Shown piece after piece: positions 3,078-25,648 of a stretch of DNA of 64,000 nucleotides (positions within the stretch are counted from its first letter, which is position 1; each line of letters opens with the position of its first letter). The translations under genes and the position numbers were made by a program. The DNA comes from an uncultured Clostridium sp. (lineage in GTDB: Bacteria > Bacillota > Clostridia > TANB77 > CAG-508). The stretch spans positions 85-64,084 of the forward strand of contig CAOKPI010000006.1 of assembly GCA_948470605.1 (NCBI GenBank). Reading direction: 5' to 3'. Below the pieces are notes generated by a model, which was not told where the DNA came from, did no database searches, and saw nothing but the letters and a program-made list of their open reading frames with translations.

Positions 3078-5301
3078 ATGGAAATTACGGGAGAAATACA
3101 AGATATTATCTATAAAAATGAAATTAATAGTTATACGATAGCGGAATTTGAGACGGAAGATGAAACTACTACAGTAGTAGGATATTTACCGTTTATTAAT
3201 AGTGGTGACACATTGAAGGTGATAGGAAAGTTTGTAGAGCATAAAGAATATGGAAGACAATTTAAGATAGATACTTTTGAAAAATTAATGCCACAAACAT
3301 TAGGGGCATTAGAGAGATATTTAGCAAATGGAAATATTAAAGGAATTGGAGAAGCTCTAGCCAAAAGGATTGTAAAGAGATTTGGTGAGGAAACGATTCC
3401 TATTTTTAAGTATGAACCAAAGAGATTGGCAGAGATAAAAGGTATTTCGGAAAGTAAGGCCATTCAGATGTCAGAAGATTTTATACAAAATTGGGAAGTG
3501 TGGCAGATTGTAGGATTCTTAGAGAGATTTGGAATCGGTGCAGAGCATGCGAAAAAAGTCTTTGATTTATTGGGCGCCAATGCGATTGAACAAATTGAGG
3601 CAAATCCGTATATTTTAATTGATATAGCAAGAGGCGTAGATTTTAAGCAGATTGATAAAATGGCTCTTGATTTAGGGATTAATTATGATAATGAAAAGAG
3701 AGTGGTGAGTGGGATTAAATATGGACTCATCAGGAGTACCTATAATGGACATGCTTGTGTATTAAAAAATAATTTGATTGAATTTGTGATTGACCTTTTA
3801 GATGTGTCAACAGAAAACGTGGAAGATGGGTTGATTCGCTTAAAGGTAAAAGACGAAATTATAACCGAACAAAGAGAAGGCGAAGAATATGTTTATTTGC
3901 AAGCTTTTTTCAATACAGAAGCAGAAATTGCCATTCGAATTAACAGATTGCAAAATGCCAAAAATGTTAAAAAAGTAGCTCATATGGAATCAGAACTAAA
4001 AAAAGTAGAGGCAAAATCAAGTATCGAGTTGTCAGAGAAACAAAAAGAAGCCATCAAATTAATCAATGATAATAATGTTGCTATTATTACTGGTGGGCCA
4101 GGTACGGGAAAGACTACCATTATAAAAACAATGATTGATATTTATGAAGAAAAAGGAAAGAAAGTAGTTCTTTGTGCACCAACAGGGAGAGCAGCCAAAA
4201 GAATGACTGAGACAACAGGAAAAGAGGCATCTACTTTACATCGCTTATTAGAAATTGGAAAAATTGACGAAGATAGTCTGTATAAAAATACGTCAGATTA
4301 TGAAGGGGCACCCATTGATGGCGATTTAATTGTGGTAGATGAAATGTCAATGGTGGATATGTTTTTGATGAATTATTTACTAAAATGCATCTATCAAGGC
4401 ACAAAACTAGTGTTAGTGGGAGATGAAGACCAGCTGGCATCTGTGGGACCAGGTTGTGTTTTAAAGGATTTAATTTATTCAGAGCAAATCGCAACCATTC
4501 ATCTAGATAAAATTTTTAGACAAGCAGCCAAAAGTAAAATTGTCTTAAATGCCCATAGAGTGAATCAAGGAGAAGGATTTTTGAAAAAGGGAGAGGATGA
4601 AATTTTAGAAGAAATGCTAGATGATTTCTTTTTTATAAAGGGAATGAGTCAAGAAAAGATGTTGGCAGAGGTAATTTCCCTATGTACAGGTAGATTGCAA
4701 AATTACGGAGATTATGATTTCTTTCAAAATATACAAGTTTTATCTCCTACCAAAAAAGGAATGCTTGGAACAAAGGAATTAAATAAGGCTTTACAACAAC
4801 AGTTAAATCCTAATATTGAGAATTTGCCAGAAAAGGCGAGTATGGGTGCTGTTTATCGAGCTGGCGACCGAGTCATGCAAATTAAAAATAATTATGACAT
4901 CTACTGGGAAAAGCAAGTTTCTGGTAAAAAAGAAATGGGAAGTGGCGTTTTTAATGGAGAAATAGGAACGATTACAGAAATTAACGAGAAGGAAAAAAAG
5001 GTGGAAATTCGATTTGATGATGAAAAAGTGGCTTGGTATGAATTTTCGAATTTAGACCAAATTGAACATAGTTATGCGATTACCATACATAAATCCCAAC
5101 GGAAGCGAGTTTGATGTAGTTATTATGGTAGTTCCACCAACTTCGCCAATGCTGATTACTAGGAATTTACTTTATACGGGTATTACGAGAGCGAAAAAGC
5201 TTATAGTAATTGTTGGTATGGAAAAGGTAGTGGATTTTATGATTCAAAATGTGGATGTGAAGAAGAGAAATACAGGTTTAGCGTATAAAATGAGACAATA
5301 A
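3078..5301 (+). pseudogene. recD2: RecD2-type ATP-dependent DNA helicase, interrupted by a +1 frameshift at about 5100
   Basis: ORFs 3078-5114 and 5062-5301 join into one RecD-like helicase (GGPGTGKTT Walker A, VVDEMSMVD). The conserved motif ITIHKSQGSEF is split as AAA TCC CAA [C] GGA AGC GAG TTT. Confidence 0.85.
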
Positions 5302-19770: not shown

Positions 19771-20694
19771 ATGTATATGTTATCAAATAAATTAAATATA
19801 GGAGACACAATAGGAATTATATCGCCATCAGCACCAATAACACAAGATTTAAAAGAACAATTTAATAGAGGACTACAAGTGTTTAAAGATATGGGATTTA
19901 AAATTGAGTTAAGTAAAAATGTATATGCAAATACATTAGGCTATTCATCTACAGTAAGTGAAAAAGTAGAAGATATAAATGAAATGTTTGCAAATAAAGA
20001 AGTAAAAGCAATAATATGCTCACAAGGTGGACAAAATTCAAATGCAATTCTTCCATACATAGATTATGAAATAATAAAAAATAATCCAAAAATAATAATG
20101 GGAATTAGTGATTCGACAGCGATACTAAATGCTATTTATGCAAAAACAGGAATTATAACATATCATCAAAACGATATTATTTGGGGATTAGGAAGAGAAG
20201 TATCAGAAAAAGAAGCTAATGATTTTAAATTAAGACTAATAGATGGAAAAAATGGAAAAGTAGAACATTTTACAAAATGGAGTTGTTTAAGAGATGGAAT
20301 AGCGGAAGAAGTTTTAGTTGGTGGTAATTTATCAACTCTTGTTAAATTATTAAAAACAGAATACTGTCCAGATTTTAATAATAAAATATTATTTTTAGAA
20401 GAGTATGCAGATGAATCTCCATTAGATGAGGTAGATAGCAAAATAAATATACTAAAACAACATAAAGTATTTGAAAAAATAAAAGGCTTATGGATAGGAT
20501 ATTATGAAAAAGATACAGAAATAGCAAAGTTTGAAGATGTAATAATGAACAATTTACAAGAATATGAATTTCCAATACTAAAATGTAATGATTTTGGACA
20601 TAATTGCGAAAATATAGTTATTCCAGTTGGTGCAAAAATAAAATTAGATGCTACAAATTGTGAAGTTGAAATAATAGAGAGAACATTGAATTAA
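19771..20694 (+). CDS. S66 family LD-carboxypeptidase / MccF-like serine peptidase
   Basis: GDTIGIISPSAP N-terminus, nucleophile motif GISDSTA, C-terminal FGHN histidine motif. Confidence 0.8.
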   Translation: MYMLSNKLNIGDTIGIISPSAPITQDLKEQFNRGLQVFKDMGFKIELSKNVYANTLGYSSTVSEKVEDINEMFANKEVKAIICSQGGQNSNAILPYIDYEIIKNNPKIIMGISDSTAILNAIYAKTGIITYHQNDIIWGLGREVSEKEANDFKLRLIDGKNGKVEHFTKWSCLRDGIAEEVLVGGNLSTLVKLLKTEYCPDFNNKILFLEEYADESPLDEVDSKINILKQHKVFEKIKGLWIGYYEKDTEIAKFEDVIMNNLQEYEFPILKCNDFGHNCENIVIPVGAKIKLDATNCEVEIIERTLN

Positions 20695-20794
20695 TATAAG
20701 ATAAAAGAGTAAATTATATTAAAAATGGATATAAAGATGTAAAAATTAAGTAAGAAAAAGTTGTAAAAGAAATAGAAAAATATTGCAAGATGAT

Positions 20795-20823
20795 TTGACA
20801 GAAACTTAAAATTATGTTAATAT
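20795..20823 (+). promoter_or_regulatory. SigA-type promoter of the His-leader / hisS-fusion operon
   Basis: TTGACA (20795-20800), 17 nt spacer, TGtTAATAT extended -10 (20815-20823). Confidence 0.65.
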
Positions 20824-20859
20824 ATAAACATATAAAAAATAGAAAAGAAGGAATTAATT

Positions 20860-20913
20860 ATGAAGTTAAGAATATTTTTAAACCAATTACATCATCATCG
20901 TAGGAGCTTGTAA
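20860..20913 (+). CDS. 17-aa leader peptide MKLRIFLNQLHHHRRSL with three consecutive His codons
   Basis: GAAGGA RBS 8 nt upstream; CAT CAT CAT at 20890-20898; followed by alternative hairpins and a terminator before the HisRS-fusion gene. Confidence 0.6.
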   Translation: MKLRIFLNQLHHHRRSL

Positions 20914-20927
20914 CTAGCATTTTTATG

Positions 20928-20957
20928 CGTAGGTACAGGCTAAAAACTGTACCTACG
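20928..20957 (+). promoter_or_regulatory. Leader hairpin (11 bp stem) with alternative pairing partners
   Basis: CGTAGGTACAG-gctaaaaa-CTGTACCTACG. The 3' arm CCTACGAT is also complementary to ATCGTAGG (20897-20904, overlapping the last His codon). It is also partly complementary to CTATTTGTAGG in the 5' arm of the terminator. Confidence 0.55.
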
Positions 20958-20989
20958 ATAGTTTAAAAATATTTAAGATAGATATACTT

Positions 20990-21037
20990 AAAAAGACTAT
21001 TTGTAGGAAATAAAATTTTTACAAATAGTCTTTTTTG
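20990..21037 (+). terminator. Leader (attenuator) terminator upstream of the HisRS-fusion gene
   Basis: AAAAGACTATTTGT-aggaaataaaattttt-ACAAATAGTCTTTT followed by TTTT, 65 nt before ATG 21102. Confidence 0.8.
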
Positions 21038-21101
21038 TGTATCTATTTTTGTTTAAAAATATTAAAACTTCATAATTAATAAAAAAAGAAAGGTGATTTA
21101 A

Positions 21102-23174
21102 ATGAAAAAGTTAGAATTAAAAAATGTAAAAGGTAGTTATGATTATGAAAGTAAAGATCAAATTATAAGAAATTATATCTCAGACACTTTAAGAGAAGTT
21201 TTTGAGAAATATGGGTACAAACCATTATCAACATCAATCTTATGTTATTATGATTTATTAGCTTTAAAATATGATGATGATAATGACATACTAAATGAAA
21301 TATATAAAGTAACAGACCAAGCCAAAAGAAATTTAGCATTAAGATATGATTTAACAGTATCATTTGCAAAATATATTGCAGTAAATAAAAACATAAATTT
21401 ACCATATAAAAGATATGAAATAGGAAAAGTATTTAGAGATGGTCCAGTAAAGCGAGGAAGAGTAAGAGAGTTTATTCAATGTGATGTAGATAGTGTAGGA
21501 ATAGAAGGGCAACTAATAGAAGCAGAACTAATTAGTTTATTTGTAGAAGGATATAGAAGATTAGGAATTGACATTATAATAAAATATAATAATAGAAAAA
21601 TTATGTCAGGGATAATTGAAATATGCAAAATTACAAAAGAAAAGATAAATCAAACAATAACAATAATTGATAAATTTGAAAAATTAACAAAAGAAGAAAT
21701 AAGATTAGAATTTGTAAAAATAGGGTTAGAAGAAGAACAAATAAATAATTTAATTAAATATTTAAATATGAACTTTGATGAAATTAAGGAAAAATTTGAA
21801 GGAATGCAAAATTTAGAATTACAAGAAGGAATAAAAGAAATAAATGAGTTAAATAAATATATAAAAAGTCTTAATTTAGATAACTATGTTCAATTTAAAG
21901 CAACACTTGCAAGAGGGCAAGAATATTATACAGGAACAGTATTTGAAGTTTATCAAACAAATGGAGATATAAAATCAAGCATTGGAGGTGGAGGAAGATA
22001 TGACAAAATGATAGGCAATTTTATAGGTGATGGCAAAAAATATCCAGCTGTTGGTATAAGTTTTGGACTAGATGTTATATTTGATATTTTGAAAGCAAAA
22101 GGAAATTTAAAAAATACAAATATAGATGTATATATAATTCCAATGCAAAACAAAATCCAAGCACTAAAAATTGCAACAGATTTAAGAAAACAAGATATAA
22201 ATGTAGATATTGAAATGAATAATAAAAAATTAAAAAAGGCATTAAATTATGCAAATATAGAAGAGATTCCATCTGTAATTATAATTGGAGATGATGAATT
22301 AAAAGAAGATAAAGTAATACTTAAAAATATGCAAACAGGTTCACAAATAAAAGTGAAAATCGAAGAAATAGCAAAAAATTTAAAAAATATAGATAAGAGT
22401 TTAAATTATAAAATATTAAATCCTGGAGGAAATAAAACAGCCATAGTTATAGGAAACGAGTATAGTAATGAAGATAAAAAGAAAATAAATGATAAAATTT
22501 TAAAAGAAAATCCAGATGTAGAACAAGTTGGATTTATAAGCAAAAAAGAAAACAAACTAGAAATGGCAGGAGGAGAATTTTGTATGAATGCAACAAGATG
22601 TGCAATATGGGAATATCTAAAAGGGGATTTAGGAGAAATAGAATTAAATGTTTCAGGTTGTAAAGAAAAAATAACAGGAGGAATAACAAAAGAAAAAGAG
22701 GTATATGTAAATATGCAAATAAACAAAAAAATGAGTGAAATTATAGAAAAAAACAACAAATTAAATTTTATAAAATTAGATGGAATATTATTAACTATAA
22801 TTGATGAAGAAAACTCAAAGAGATATATAGAAGAGTTAAAAAAAGATGAGGAAAAAGCGAAATTTAAATTAAAAGAAATAATGCAAACATTTGAAACATC
22901 TGAAAAAGCCTTAGGAATCATATTATTAGAAAAAGAAAAATCAAAAACTAAAATTAATCCTATAATTTGGGTAAAAACAATAGATACATTATATTATGAA
23001 ACAGCTTGTGGTAGTGGAAGTTTAGCAACAGCAATTTACAAGAATTATATAGAAGGAATAGAAAATTTAGAAATTATGCAACCATCAGGATATAGTATTA
23101 ATATAAACTTAAACCAAAAACAAGAATATATAGAAAATGCTATTATAACAGGAAAAGTAATCGAGGAGGAATAA
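21102..23174 (+). CDS. Histidine--tRNA ligase fused to a C-terminal CntK/HisR-like (DapF-fold) histidine racemase domain
   Basis: aa 1-~430: class II HisRS (FRDGPVKRGRVREFIQCD, LARGQEYYTG, GGGGRYD, anticodon-binding domain). aa ~433-690: NPGGNKTAIV, GGEFCMNATR (Cys codon 22581-22583), ETACGSGS (Cys codon 23007-23009). Confidence 0.75.
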   Translation: MKKLELKNVKGSYDYESKDQIIRNYISDTLREVFEKYGYKPLSTSILCYYDLLALKYDDDNDILNEIYKVTDQAKRNLALRYDLTVSFAKYIAVNKNINLPYKRYEIGKVFRDGPVKRGRVREFIQCDVDSVGIEGQLIEAELISLFVEGYRRLGIDIIIKYNNRKIMSGIIEICKITKEKINQTITIIDKFEKLTKEEIRLEFVKIGLEEEQINNLIKYLNMNFDEIKEKFEGMQNLELQEGIKEINELNKYIKSLNLDNYVQFKATLARGQEYYTGTVFEVYQTNGDIKSSIGGGGRYDKMIGNFIGDGKKYPAVGISFGLDVIFDILKAKGNLKNTNIDVYIIPMQNKIQALKIATDLRKQDINVDIEMNNKKLKKALNYANIEEIPSVIIIGDDELKEDKVILKNMQTGSQIKVKIEEIAKNLKNIDKSLNYKILNPGGNKTAIVIGNEYSNEDKKKINDKILKENPDVEQVGFISKKENKLEMAGGEFCMNATRCAIWEYLKGDLGEIELNVSGCKEKITGGITKEKEVYVNMQINKKMSEIIEKNNKLNFIKLDGILLTIIDEENSKRYIEELKKDEEKAKFKLKEIMQTFETSEKALGIILLEKEKSKTKINPIIWVKTIDTLYYETACGSGSLATAIYKNYIEGIENLEIMQPSGYSININLNQKQEYIENAIITGKVIEEE

Positions 23175-23178
23175 AAAT

Positions 23179-24198
23179 ATGAGTGCAAAAGATATTTTAA
23201 AAGATTTAGTAAAATTCAATACAGTAAAAGATAAAGACAATAAAGAAATAATTAGTTATATAGAGAAAATTTTAAAAAGTAAAGGATTTAAAACCGATTA
23301 TAAAAGCAAAGATTTAATAATGAGTATAAAAAATAAAAACACTTTAGGTTTTTTAGGTCATACAGACACAGTTGGGGCAGGTAACGACTGGAATACAAAT
23401 CCATTTGAACTAAAGGAAAGTAAAGGGAATTTATATGGACTAGGAACATGTGACATGAAAGGTGGAATTGCTGCTATTTTACAAGCAGTACTAGAAACAG
23501 ATTGGGAAAAATTAAAATATGGAATAAAATTATATTTTACTTATGATGAAGAAATCAATTTTTTAGGAATAAAAGAGATAATTCAAAAAAAAGAAAAATT
23601 TCCTGACAATATGATTATAGGAGAGCCAACAAATAATGCTATAATGAATGGAAGTAAAGGATTACTAGAACTAAAATTAGATTTTAATGGAATTTCAGCA
23701 CATTCAAGTATGCCATATGAAGGTGAAAATGCAATAGAAAAATGTATAGAATTTATAAATGAATTAAAAATCTTCTATAATCAATTAAAAGAAGATAAAA
23801 GTGATGTTTTTGAAATAGGATATACAACTATGAATATAGGAAAAATAGATGGAGGTAAAAGTATAAATATTGTTCCAAATAGTTGCAAAGTACTAATAGA
23901 TTTTAGAATTATAAAAGATGAGCATATAAATTTGATACTAAATAAAATTAACGAACTTACACAAAATTATAAGGGGAATTATGAAATAATAAACAATATA
24001 AAACCTTTTATAAATCAAGATGAAGATATTTATCCTACCAATTTTATAACAGAAGCTAGTTTTATAGATTCAAAAAATAGATATATTTTGGGTGGAGGAC
24101 CAATTAATCCACATGAAGCAAATGAATATATATCTAGAGATAGTTTAGAAAATTTAGTTAAGCAGTATAAAGAAATGATATGTAAATATTGCAATTAA
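23179..24198 (+). CDS. M20 family metallohydrolase (ArgE/DapE-like)
   Basis: GHTDTVGAG...NPF...LYGLGTCDMKGG metal-binding motifs; starts 4 nt after the fusion gene stop. Confidence 0.8.
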   Translation: MSAKDILKDLVKFNTVKDKDNKEIISYIEKILKSKGFKTDYKSKDLIMSIKNKNTLGFLGHTDTVGAGNDWNTNPFELKESKGNLYGLGTCDMKGGIAAILQAVLETDWEKLKYGIKLYFTYDEEINFLGIKEIIQKKEKFPDNMIIGEPTNNAIMNGSKGLLELKLDFNGISAHSSMPYEGENAIEKCIEFINELKIFYNQLKEDKSDVFEIGYTTMNIGKIDGGKSINIVPNSCKVLIDFRIIKDEHINLILNKINELTQNYKGNYEIINNIKPFINQDEDIYPTNFITEASFIDSKNRYILGGGPINPHEANEYISRDSLENLVKQYKEMICKYCN

Positions 24199-24284
24199 AA
24201 AATGTTTTGATACAAATTAAACTAATTATCCGCATTTGGTTGACAAGTGCGGGTAATTGGTTTAAAATAGATTTGGTGGTAAGT

Positions 24285-24827
24285 ATGATATATAATTATA
24301 AAGAAATTAAAGAGAAGTATAAAACTAATTATAAAATTAATAAAGCAATTAAAGATAAAGAGCTATATAAAATAGAAAAAAATATATATTCTGATACAAA
24401 AAATGTAAACTATTTAGAAATGATTTCAAAAAAATACCCAAATGCAATTTTCACAATGGATAGTGCATTCTATTTCCATAATCTAACGGATGTCATTCCA
24501 AGTAAAATAAATTTAGCTATTGAAAGAAATTCATCACGTATTAAAGATGAAAAAATAAATCAAGTTTTAACTATAAAAAAATTATTCGAAATTGGCAAGA
24601 TGCAAATGATTGTTGAAGGAGCTATTATTAATGTGTATGATAAAGAAAGAATGCTAATAGAATTAATCCGAAATAAAAATCAAATTGCTTTTGATTATTA
24701 TAAAGAAATTATTTCCAACTATAGAAAAATAATAAGTGACATAGATATAAGTAAAATTGAAGAATATATAGAGATATTCCCACATGAAGAGCATATATAT
24801 GAAACATTACAGAGAGAGGTGTTCTAA
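24285..24827 (+). CDS. Type IV TA system AbiEi family antitoxin-like protein
   Basis: ~180 aa, precedes the AbiEii gene and overlaps it (TAATG); LYKIEKNIYS / MDSAFYFHNLTD pattern typical of AbiEi. Confidence 0.65.
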   Translation: MIYNYKEIKEKYKTNYKINKAIKDKELYKIEKNIYSDTKNVNYLEMISKKYPNAIFTMDSAFYFHNLTDVIPSKINLAIERNSSRIKDEKINQVLTIKKLFEIGKMQMIVEGAIINVYDKERMLIELIRNKNQIAFDYYKEIISNYRKIISDIDISKIEEYIEIFPHEEHIYETLQREVF

Positions 24828-25648
24828 TGGATTTAAAAGAAATGAGACAAAGATACATAAATGAAGGATATGATTTTTTAGATGCATCAGCAAAAGTATG
24901 CCAAGATATACTTTTAGCTAAAATATCTAAAAGTGCATTAAATAGAAATATAACTATAAAAGGCGGAGTAGTAATGCACAATATTTCAAAAGATAGCAGA
25001 CGTGCTACCAGAGATTTAGACTTAGATTTTATCAAATATTCGTTAGATGATAAATCAATAAAAAATTTTATAGAAAAATTAAATTATCCCAAAACAGATA
25101 TAAGCATAAATATAATAGGTAAAATTGAAGAACTAAGTCATCAAGATTATAATGGAAAAAGAGTATATATTGAAGTTAAGGATAAAAAACATAATAAAAT
25201 TGAAACTAAATTAGACATAGGAGTACATAAAAACTTTGATATAGAACAAGATGAATGTTGTTTTGATTTAAACAATATAAATGAAAGTGTTACATTGTTA
25301 ATAAATTCAAAAGAACAAATTTTTACGGAAAAGTTAAAATCATTATTAAAATTTGGATTTGTTTCAACAAGGTATAAAGATATATTTGATTTCTATTATC
25401 TAATAAATAATGAAGATTTAAATAAAGATAAGTTACTTAAGTGCTTTCACACCTTTATATTTAGTGATGATACAATGAAAGAAGATAATTTAGAAGACAT
25501 ATTTAATAGACTAAAAAGAATATTACATAATAGAAATTACTTAAAAAATTTAAACACAGCTAAAAATAATTGGTTAGAACTACCAATAGAAGAAGTGATT
25601 AAAAGCGTATTAGATTATTTTGAGACATTGCAAGTTGCAGAAGTATAG
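24827..25648 (+). CDS. Nucleotidyltransferase AbiEii/AbiGii toxin family protein
   Basis: ITIKGGVVMHN...RATRDLDLDF matches the AbiEii NTase motif (LKGGTAL...R.S.DLDF). Confidence 0.75.
   Translation: MDLKEMRQRYINEGYDFLDASAKVCQDILLAKISKSALNRNITIKGGVVMHNISKDSRRATRDLDLDFIKYSLDDKSIKNFIEKLNYPKTDISINIIGKIEELSHQDYNGKRVYIEVKDKKHNKIETKLDIGVHKNFDIEQDECCFDLNNINESVTLLINSKEQIFTEKLKSLLKFGFVSTRYKDIFDFYYLINNEDLNKDKLLKCFHTFIFSDDTMKEDNLEDIFNRLKRILHNRNYLKNLNTAKNNWLELPIEEVIKSVLDYFETLQVAEV

Follow-up and report, generated by a model that had tools for sequence, protein, structure and literature searches.

A histidine leader peptide as a predicted transcription attenuator of a histidyl-tRNA synthetase–racemase operon in uncultured gut Clostridia

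In E. coli, the pheM leader that precedes pheST exemplifies a leader peptide with many residues of the cognate amino acid in control of an aminoacyl-tRNA synthetase operon. A histidine attenuator of a kind similar to that discussed below was reportedly predicted for B. cereus and C. difficile by Vitreschak and co-workers in 2004. Ashniev et al. (2022, BMC Genomics, PMC9413887) did not find the His_leader family RF00514 in Firmicutes, and they predicted His leader-peptide attenuators before the his operons of the B. cereus group, Peptostreptococcaceae plus Lutispora, and Erysipelotrichales. For the Firmicute Staphylococcus aureus, repression of branched-chain amino-acid synthesis by way of a leucine-rich attenuator peptide of ilv-leu is reported (Kaiser et al. 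2018, PMC5794164). Here we describe a candidate His leader in a 64,000-nucleotide stretch of DNA (contig CAOKPI010000006.1, hereafter the window) from an uncultured Clostridium sp., where it lies at 20795–21101 upstream of an operon encoding a fusion of histidyl-tRNA synthetase (HisRS) with a racemase, and an M20-family enzyme. An earlier note on this DNA had proposed ribosome-mediated attenuation instead of a T-box at this place and had called His leader peptides best known from Proteobacteria; the latter statement has to be widened to the three Firmicute groups just named.

We consider it very probable that the element is a ribosome-mediated leader-peptide transcription attenuator, which would sense charged tRNA-His and control the HisRS-racemase/M20 operon. 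The sequence features, their conservation, the maintained reading frame, the covarying helices and the his-related target genes are observed and argue for this mode of control, whereas the choice of structure by ribosome position is inferred from thermodynamic folding, and the response to histidine itself is likewise a prediction.

Conservation and reading frame of the leader

Searching GTDB species genomes with the racemase-domain alignment (A1) yielded 79 loci, almost all from metagenome-assembled genomes of uncultured Clostridia of animal guts. Thirty leader loci came via the racemase homologs, and a DNA pattern made from the leader gave 34 further metagenome loci. The leader, promoter, hairpins and terminator recur in about 70 loci of uncultured low-GC gut Clostridia, and with them the mini-ORF (open reading frame), the His run and the alternative pairings, whose loss in relatives had been proposed as a refutation of the attenuator. 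The leader peptide has the consensus M-x3-IFLNQLHHHRRSL. The leader DNA hardly varies between codon 5 and the terminator, although the proteins encoded downstream share only 52–76% identity. Nearly all leaders carry HHH; two His residues were seen in a few (HH in L035, and the HHY, HHN and YHH forms of L021, L036 and L058), and one synonymous CAC occurs in the His run of L031. The parts of the element in the window are listed below by coordinates, strand and description.

20795–20823, + strand: sigma-70-type promoter, with TTGACA at 20795–20800, a 17-nt spacer, TG at 20815–16 and TAATAT at 20818–23 (extended −10, TGtTAATAT)
20847–20852, + strand: Shine-Dalgarno sequence GAAGGA, separated by 7 nt from the ATG of the leader ORF
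20860–20913, + strand: leader ORF of 17 codons, MKLRIFLNQLHHHRRSL, with ATG at 20860 and stop codon TAA at 20911–13
20872–20883, + strand: S1 (codons IFLN, AUAUUUUUAAAC), which pairs with S1' at 20961–72 or alternatively with 21051–62 within the long-range helix P0
20890–20898, + strand: three successive His codons, CAT CAT CAT, the proposed sensor
20897–20904, + strand: segment A (AUCGUAGG; in DNA ATCGTAGG; third His and Arg-Arg codons), pairing with C at 20952–59 when ribosome-free
20905–20941, + strand: protector hairpin, an 8-bp stem of A' (AGCUUGUA, 20905–12) and B3' (UACAGGCU, 20934–41) with the last A of the stop codon bulged and a variable stem X (20914–32)
20928–38 with 20947–57, + strand: B:C hairpin, the anti-antiterminator (CGTAGGTACAG/CTGTACCTACG; CGUAGGUACAG with CUGUACCUACG), a perfect 11 bp, −19.5 kcal/mol
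20952–20961, + strand: hub segment C3' (CCUACGAUAG; in DNA CCTACGAT(AG)), with A, B and D as alternative partners
20961–20972, + strand: S1' (GUUUAAAAAUAU), partner of S1
20977–20987, + strand: 5' arm of the terminator extension (T-ext), pairing with 21037–47
20990–21036, + strand: intrinsic terminator, with D arm 20990–21006, E arm 21019–21035 and U-tract (U6) 21031–36
20997–21007, + strand: D sub-segment CUAUUUGUAGG (also CTATTTGTAGG), which pairs with C as the 3' strand of the proposed antiterminator
21037–21050, + strand: 3' arm of T-ext (GUGUAUCUAUU), then a second U-run at 21046–50
21051–21081, + strand: 3' arm of P0, complementary to 20853–20883, between the terminator and the main ribosome-binding site (RBS) and ending about 10 nt before the latter
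21089–21104, + strand: RBS (AAAGGUG) and ATG (21102) of the regulated gene, as read from the sequence

The promoter, the 17-codon ORF with its RBS and three CAT codons, the 11-bp hairpin and the U-tract terminator had all been reported in the earlier note, and we found each of them. The inventory of hairpins in that note was correct for those it listed and lacked three helices, namely the protector (20905–20941), the helix formed by the IFLN codons (20872–83/20961–72) and the long-range pairing of 20853–83 with 21051–81. In a local scan, the promoter was the top promoter-like site within 20400–21400 (10/12 matches plus TG). Because such sites are not enriched there (11 found and 9.8 expected by chance), its weight comes from conservation: a TTGAY-N16-18-TAnnnT motif is present at the equivalent place in 48 of 53 related loci.

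The reading frame was evaluated on 66 complete elements, which had been ascertained through the B:C hairpin alone and thus independently of the ORF. A Shine-Dalgarno sequence followed by an ATG and an ORF of 13–19 codons containing HH was found in 65 of them. Codons 2–4 are hypervariable, but none of their 41 distinct versions holds a stop codon where 14.3 stops were expected from base composition (P ~2.5e-7, an approximate value as the sequences are related). Insertions and deletions in the leader keep the frame (+3 nt in L001 and L004; −3 nt, equal to one His codon, in L035), and the single +1 insertion, in L016, leads to HHHF-stop, a form that other subtypes use. These patterns show that the frame is under selection, and the leader ORF is probably translated, or at least kept open. 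A scan of the window for other HHH mini-ORFs gave none besides the leader at 20860–20913, and a regex search of the window for more copies of the element returned only the palindromic image of the same hairpin.

In more distant relatives, other leader subtypes occur upstream of racemase, M20 or his genes (...NKHHVWSEYHPYILV..., WHHHIRACV, HHHF). A second leader type (...N-K/L-HHVWSEYHPYILV...) was observed before racemase or M20 in L006 (~1008–1260), L009 (~3724–3900), L024 (~3496–3650) and L034 (~2770–2950), and its GUAUGGAGUGA / UCACCCAUAC / GAUGUAUGAGUGA segments make up the classical 1:2, 2:3 and 3:4 alternative hairpins. The HHHF-stop, HHHFYTCV and WHHHIRACV subtypes stand before hisZ or racemase (L071, 189–400; L074, 3723–3900; L075, 2008–2200; L076, 2070–2260; L068, 3803–4000), and in these CCUAU/AUAGG replaces CCUAC/GUAGG. 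The protector of the leader in the window starts 15 nt past the first base of His codon 1, and this spacing is kept in the divergent subtypes (HHHF-stop and HHHFYTCV, L071 and L074–76), in which the stop codon lies elsewhere.

A conserved RNA could also act by itself, as a riboswitch-like element or as an antiterminator bound by a protein or a tRNA (T-box-like, or HutP-like on UAG motifs), so that the small ORF would be incidental. That the nucleotides are more conserved than the flanking proteins, that third codon positions are almost invariant, and that several UAG triplets lie within conserved segments would all be in keeping with such an element. However, the T-box family (RF00230) had no match anywhere in the window when Rfam gathering thresholds were applied, and none in 20600–21250 with a cut-off of E<=10, in agreement with the earlier note, which had seen no T-box at the locus; cmscan of 20600–21250 at E<=10 gave no match to His_leader (RF00514) or any other cis-regulatory Rfam family either. 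An incidental ORF would also be hard to reconcile with the near-universal leader frame, its stop-free hypervariable codons and in-frame indels, and with a His codon–protector distance that is fixed even in divergent subtypes. HutP sites have a regular UAG spacing, which the UAG triplets of the leader do not follow. We regard an RNA element with an incidental ORF as very improbable, and rejected both the T-box and the HutP-like readings.

Competing helices and the position of the ribosome

RNAalifold was run on 30 leaders (alignment A2) and returned one long irregular hairpin, composed of S1:S1', A:C, A':B3' and the base of stem X, plus the terminator. In this structure, which corresponds to the state with no ribosome, 95.4% of cells are paired and 15 pairs are changed on both sides; none of 500 shuffles reached it, and slid controls were far below. 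Paired cells amount to 96% in the S1:S1' helix, which RNAalifold recovered independently, 99.6% in the A':B3' stem and 96.6% in the A:C helix, whose duplex energy is −13.1 kcal/mol and which has one compensatory pair (CG -> UA, in 4 sequences). The region 20830–21101 as a whole folds at −84.5 kcal/mol, with z = −11.9 relative to shuffles.

The protector hairpin is predicted to sequester segment B. Its shape is shared by 54 of the 56 distinct sequences, the other two, L036 and L053, having an interior mismatch in the basal stem. Its energy is between −14 and −19 kcal/mol, except in L036 (−7.2). The upper stem X is hypervariable and differs in nearly every locus, and it is always self-complementary with compensating changes (mean z about −2 versus shuffles).

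The hub CCTACGAT(AG) is complementary to ATCGTAGG at 20897–904 in segment A, to CGTAGG at 20928–33 in segment B and to TTTGTAGG at 21000–07 in the D arm, so that the earlier view of three GTAGG segments competing for one CCTAC holds for A, B and D alike. In the alignment, column 132 of the hub (G -> A) covaries both with segment A (C -> U, 4 sequences) and with segment B, where its partner is column 98. The B:C hairpin is 97.8% paired and is the minimum-free-energy structure when the ribosome is placed at the stop codon.

The terminator hairpin is AU-rich, has a stem of 20 bp by RNAfold with −20.4 kcal/mol, and shows 7 covarying pairs. Variation in its stem is confined to the 3' (E) arm, and the 5' arm CUAUUUGUAGG never changes; an invariant D arm together with a varying E arm is the pattern expected of an arm that fits two partners. 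A simple terminator scan did not flag 20990–21036, and the terminator was judged from folding and covariation. T-ext has 6 pairs changed on both sides, and the terminator plus extension reaches −34.5 kcal/mol. This covarying extension encloses the first U-tract and is followed by the second U-run; the two may constitute a two-tier or back-up terminator.

From the helices and the folding described below, we propose the following sequence of events. Transcription would start at the 20795–20823 promoter, and the 17-codon leader would be translated while it emerges, leaving the hub with three GUAGG-containing partners to choose from. With no ribosome on the leader, the hub would pair with A, stabilised by the IFLN-codon helix and the protector, and the terminator would form. 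When histidine is scarce, the ribosome would pause when its A site holds the first or the second His codon; because the protector begins 15 nt after the start of His codon 1, the ribosome would cover A and stop just short of the protector. The protector would then keep B sequestered, and the free hub would pair with the terminator 5' arm as soon as it is transcribed, forming an antiterminator that allows read-through. When histidine is plentiful, the ribosome would reach the stop codon inside the protector and melt it, and the freed B would capture the hub in the 11-bp hairpin, resulting in termination.

The 30 leaders were folded thermodynamically with the ribosome footprint forced to be single-stranded. 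Full-length equilibrium folding does not separate the states, and therefore transcripts cut just after the terminator 5' arm were used. For the window, the predicted probability of the antiterminator C:D was 0.00 without a ribosome, 0.99 with His 1 and 0.91–0.99 with His 2 in the A site, and again 0.00 when the ribosome was placed at the stop codon. For the 30 sequences, the mean probability of the antiterminator was about 0.85–0.96 with the A site on His 1–2; placing the ribosome at the stop gave 0.00 in 29 of the 30, and the codon-by-codon profile fell sharply from His 2 to His 3 and beyond. In this simulation a stall at histidine would thus favour the antiterminator and a ribosome at the stop the terminator, which is the outcome expected of attenuation; masked folding had been proposed as a check in the earlier note.

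Several points weigh against attenuation by a histidine-stalled ribosome. The antiterminator C:D, although 97.9% paired over 10 bp, is invariant and so has no covariation of its own in the family; the divergent subtypes with CCUAU/AUAGG keep the C:D complementarity when compared by eye. In equilibrium folds that contain the complete terminator, this hairpin prevails for nearly every placement of the ribosome in most sequences, and therefore antitermination must be kinetic, as it is in classical attenuators. A stall at any codon from codon 2 up to and including His 2, and not at His alone, favours the antiterminator, the ribosome-free state is predicted to be "on" in some relatives, and a generic simulation of whether the terminator 5' arm is paired gave small, inconsistent differences on the divergent subtypes. 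Transcription and translation are reported to be poorly coupled in some Firmicutes, which would count against the mechanism proposed here. Finally, the sole RNA data are assembled metatranscriptome contigs, two of which cross the leader and terminator, and they give no 3' ends, usable depth or regulatory information. These contigs, from the mouse gut (runs X11 and X15), cover 20500–21228 and 20887–21500, and together extend from the upstream gene across leader and terminator into the fusion gene. The locus is represented in RNA libraries, with DNA carry-over possible.

The peptide itself might be the sensor. IFLNQLHHHRRSL could be a nascent-chain arrest peptide that responds to a small molecule (e.g., free L- or D-histidine), replacing or supplementing the stalling at hungry codons. 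The conservation of the peptide is unusual for a leader, and two sets of leaders seem to keep the amino acids after the pairing has gone: L014 retains Arg-Arg through a switch of codon family (CGU AGG -> AGA AGA) though the A:C pairing is lost, and L001, L002 and L004, which have no S1', show only synonymous or conservative changes in the IFLN codons. However, nearly all conserved codons are base-paired within helices, and their partner strands are conserved or covary, so that constraints on the RNA are enough to explain the conservation of the peptide. Moreover, position 14 varies (R, C, S or Y), and subtypes of the same architecture carry unrelated peptides that share just the HHH run. We therefore think that an arrest peptide is hardly likely here, and prefer stalling at hungry His codons.

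Regulated genes and the long-range helix

Among the loci retrieved through the racemase domain, the 17-codon ORF stands before two types of operon, hisS-racemase fusions and stand-alone racemase-M20 pairs. In the 34 metagenome loci, the same leader precedes both of these as well as hisS alone and M20 alone. It is also found before hisZ-hisG (L083, L096 and L111), before hisG-hisIE (L101), before an SBP_bac_3/ABC permease pair of an amino-acid ABC transporter (L089) and before a GNAT-M20-NUDIX string, with GNAT as the first gene in eight loci. The unit is always upstream of histidine-related genes and in the same orientation. These downstream genes are the set expected of a histidine regulon, and this is the strongest argument for histidine as the signal.

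The association with the downstream genes also bears on the possibility that promoter and terminator, with the small ORF between them, delimit a separate small gene or small RNA, with the HisRS fusion expressed constitutively from a promoter of its own past the terminator. The window would offer space for one, as 55 nt separate the terminator U-tract from the RBS of the fusion, and promoter-like hexamers, AT-rich as they are, are common there at chance level. In several relatives, however, the terminator abuts the RBS; in L002, L003 and L078 the gap from U-tract to main RBS is ~12–18 nt, and therefore there is no room for a separate promoter. An independent gene would also leave unexplained why the unit keeps one orientation before histidine-related genes and why the terminator 5' arm is constrained beyond the need of its hairpin, and we judge it very improbable.

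The proteins under this leader are poor in histidine. The fusion has no His in 690 residues, where the background in the window is 1.39% (P = 6.5e-5 for zero), and zero His was likewise found in 60 of 64 fusion homologs and in all 48 stand-alone HisRS homologs (homologs P0001–P0120). The first genes behind 31 metagenomic leaders (loci L080–L113) hold 9 His in 10,119 residues, and the M20 enzymes retain 3–5 His each. On the transcript in the window, no His codon other than the three of the leader occurs ahead of the M20 gene. The regulated proteins that are needed when His-tRNA is scarce avoid His codons, so that cognate amino acid avoidance extends over the regulon, and their near-absent histidine makes a clean example of it.

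The first regulated gene in the window (21102–23174, + strand) encodes 690 aa, with HisRS at aa 1–430 (TIGR00442, 343 bits; PRK12420 type) and a CntK/HisR-like histidine racemase of the cofactor-independent class at aa 433–690, the racemase domain being encoded at 22390–23174. Cys64, Cys70 and Cys206 of the racemase domain (EFCxNATRC, ETACGSGS) are invariant across 14 diverse homologs (alignment A1), in agreement with a two-cysteine mechanism of the DapF type. The second gene (23179–24198, + strand) encodes a deacylase/peptidase of the M20 ArgE/DapE family; in most related loci, M20 and racemase genes are likewise linked. Upstream lies an S66 LD-carboxypeptidase-like gene that ends at 20694. 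Directly 3' of the M20 gene, in the region 24189–25648, is an overlapping 212-aa ORF without a Pfam match, which precedes a gene for an AbiEii-type nucleotidyltransferase toxin (24827–25648), and ORFs for proteins of 782 aa and 612 aa were listed further downstream. The operon of this genome may sit in accessory DNA.

Other genes behind the leader vary between loci. The eight GNAT loci (L080, L084, L087, L090, L099, L104, L105 and L107) encode a His-free acetyltransferase of ~195 aa. In L087, L090, L099, L104 and L107, the loci with sufficient downstream sequence, it is followed by an M20-sized ORF of ~295–343 aa; a Pfam M20 deacylase match with a NUDIX gene after it was seen in L087 alone. 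An acetylase-deacylase (GNAT-M20) pair is thereby placed under predicted histidine-starvation control. A small conserved protein of 88–103 aa without a Pfam match stands behind the leader in L091, L093 and L097. In L091 (7852–9360) the small ORF is followed by PRTase-like and SLOG (LDcluster4) genes, and in L085 (1476–2010) a protein whose N-terminus closely resembles that of the L091 SLOG protein follows a leader-controlled hisS.

The long-range helix P0 connects the start of the leader to the region beyond the terminator. Its 5' strand (20853–83) runs from the nucleotides immediately ahead of the leader start codon through that codon and on through codons 2–8, and in several relatives it reaches the Shine-Dalgarno sequence. 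P0 has an energy of −26.2 kcal/mol (z = −8.0) and is present in about 22 of 66 loci, where it covaries in the free-varying codon 2 (GC 9, AU 5, UA 5). Because the 3' arm lies beyond the terminator, P0 can form only after read-through. An exploratory fold, made with no control, indicated that the main translation start is less accessible with the leader start occupied in 11 of 13 P0-bearing loci. One speculative and rather doubtful interpretation is that a second level of control follows the attenuator: on full-length mRNA, P0 would stop translation of the leader and, by holding its own 3' arm, prevent that arm from blocking the main start. Translation of the leader and of HisRS-racemase would then be mutually exclusive, and, taken with the nearly His-free regulon, the element would be the master histidine-starvation sensor of this uncultured gut Clostridia clade.

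The nested inverted repeats, with a 31-nt pair at 20853–83/21051–81 that resembles terminal inverted repeats ~230 bp apart and encloses the region, could be taken for a mobile palindromic element like a miniature inverted-repeat transposable element with no regulatory role, but this least likely of the alternatives was rejected, since there is a single copy in the 64-kb window, the arms covary between loci rather than being identical, and the unit invariably follows a promoter and precedes a histidine-related gene, in a single orientation.

Comparison with known systems

As read from the sequences, a whole clade of uncultured gut Clostridia appears to use a translated His leader, and not a T-box or a HisR repressor, for hisS, for the synthesis and uptake of histidine, and for a putative salvage module of racemase, M20 deacylase and GNAT. 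The shared regulation ties these uncharacterised racemase, M20 and GNAT enzymes to histidine. It also adds a well-conserved case of ribosome-coupled attenuation to the Firmicutes, where the mechanism is considered rare.

T-box(His) leaders, which occur in Bacilli and other Firmicutes, resemble the present element in that the signal is the charging of tRNA-His, the output is read-through of a terminator, and the targets overlap (hisS, the his operon and His transporters). Here, in contrast, there is no specifier loop or T-box sequence, and sensing would proceed via a translating ribosome rather than by direct binding of tRNA. The pheST leader differs from the present one in amino acid, phylum and sequence. 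The reported ilv-leu attenuator of S. aureus is specific for Leu, belongs to a biosynthetic operon and is unrelated in sequence.

The enterobacterial hisL leader (RF00514) shares with the present element a multi-hairpin cascade in which stalling at His leads to antitermination, and termination follows when the ribosome has reached the stop codon or is absent (textbook; PMC9413887). The two have no match in sequence or structure, and hisL has seven His codons compared with three here. In addition, the stalled ribosome here would spare a protector hairpin that contains the stop codon, whereas the ribosome on hisL only masks segment 1.

The closest systems are the candidates of Ashniev et al. (PMC9413887), those of the Peptostreptococcaceae/Lutispora group in particular. 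Their short leader has 3–5 His codons in a row and is followed by an attenuator hairpin and a terminator with a predicted alternative antiterminator, a layout that by eye looks like the one proposed here. In Terrisporobacter and Lutispora (PMC9413887, Additional file 6), HHH, a few codons and a stop are followed at once by a small hairpin that leads into ...AUAG(A/G)UACAAGCCC (...AUAGAUACAAGCCC), which by eye mirrors UAA-CUA...GUAGGUACAGGCU of the present leader. Those candidates are predictions for cultured species, stand only before his biosynthesis operons and differ in primary sequence, with homology judged by eye. The present family belongs to uncultured low-GC gut Clostridia and is predicted to control hisS, racemase, M20, GNAT and ABC transporter genes as well. 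The proposed mechanism is a classical one of the his/trp type, already predicted in related taxa, and the gain is one of breadth and annotation rather than of principle. What is new is the family and its clade, the replacement of the usual T-box before hisS, the wider regulon with racemase, M20, GNAT and transporter, the His-free targets and the helix P0.

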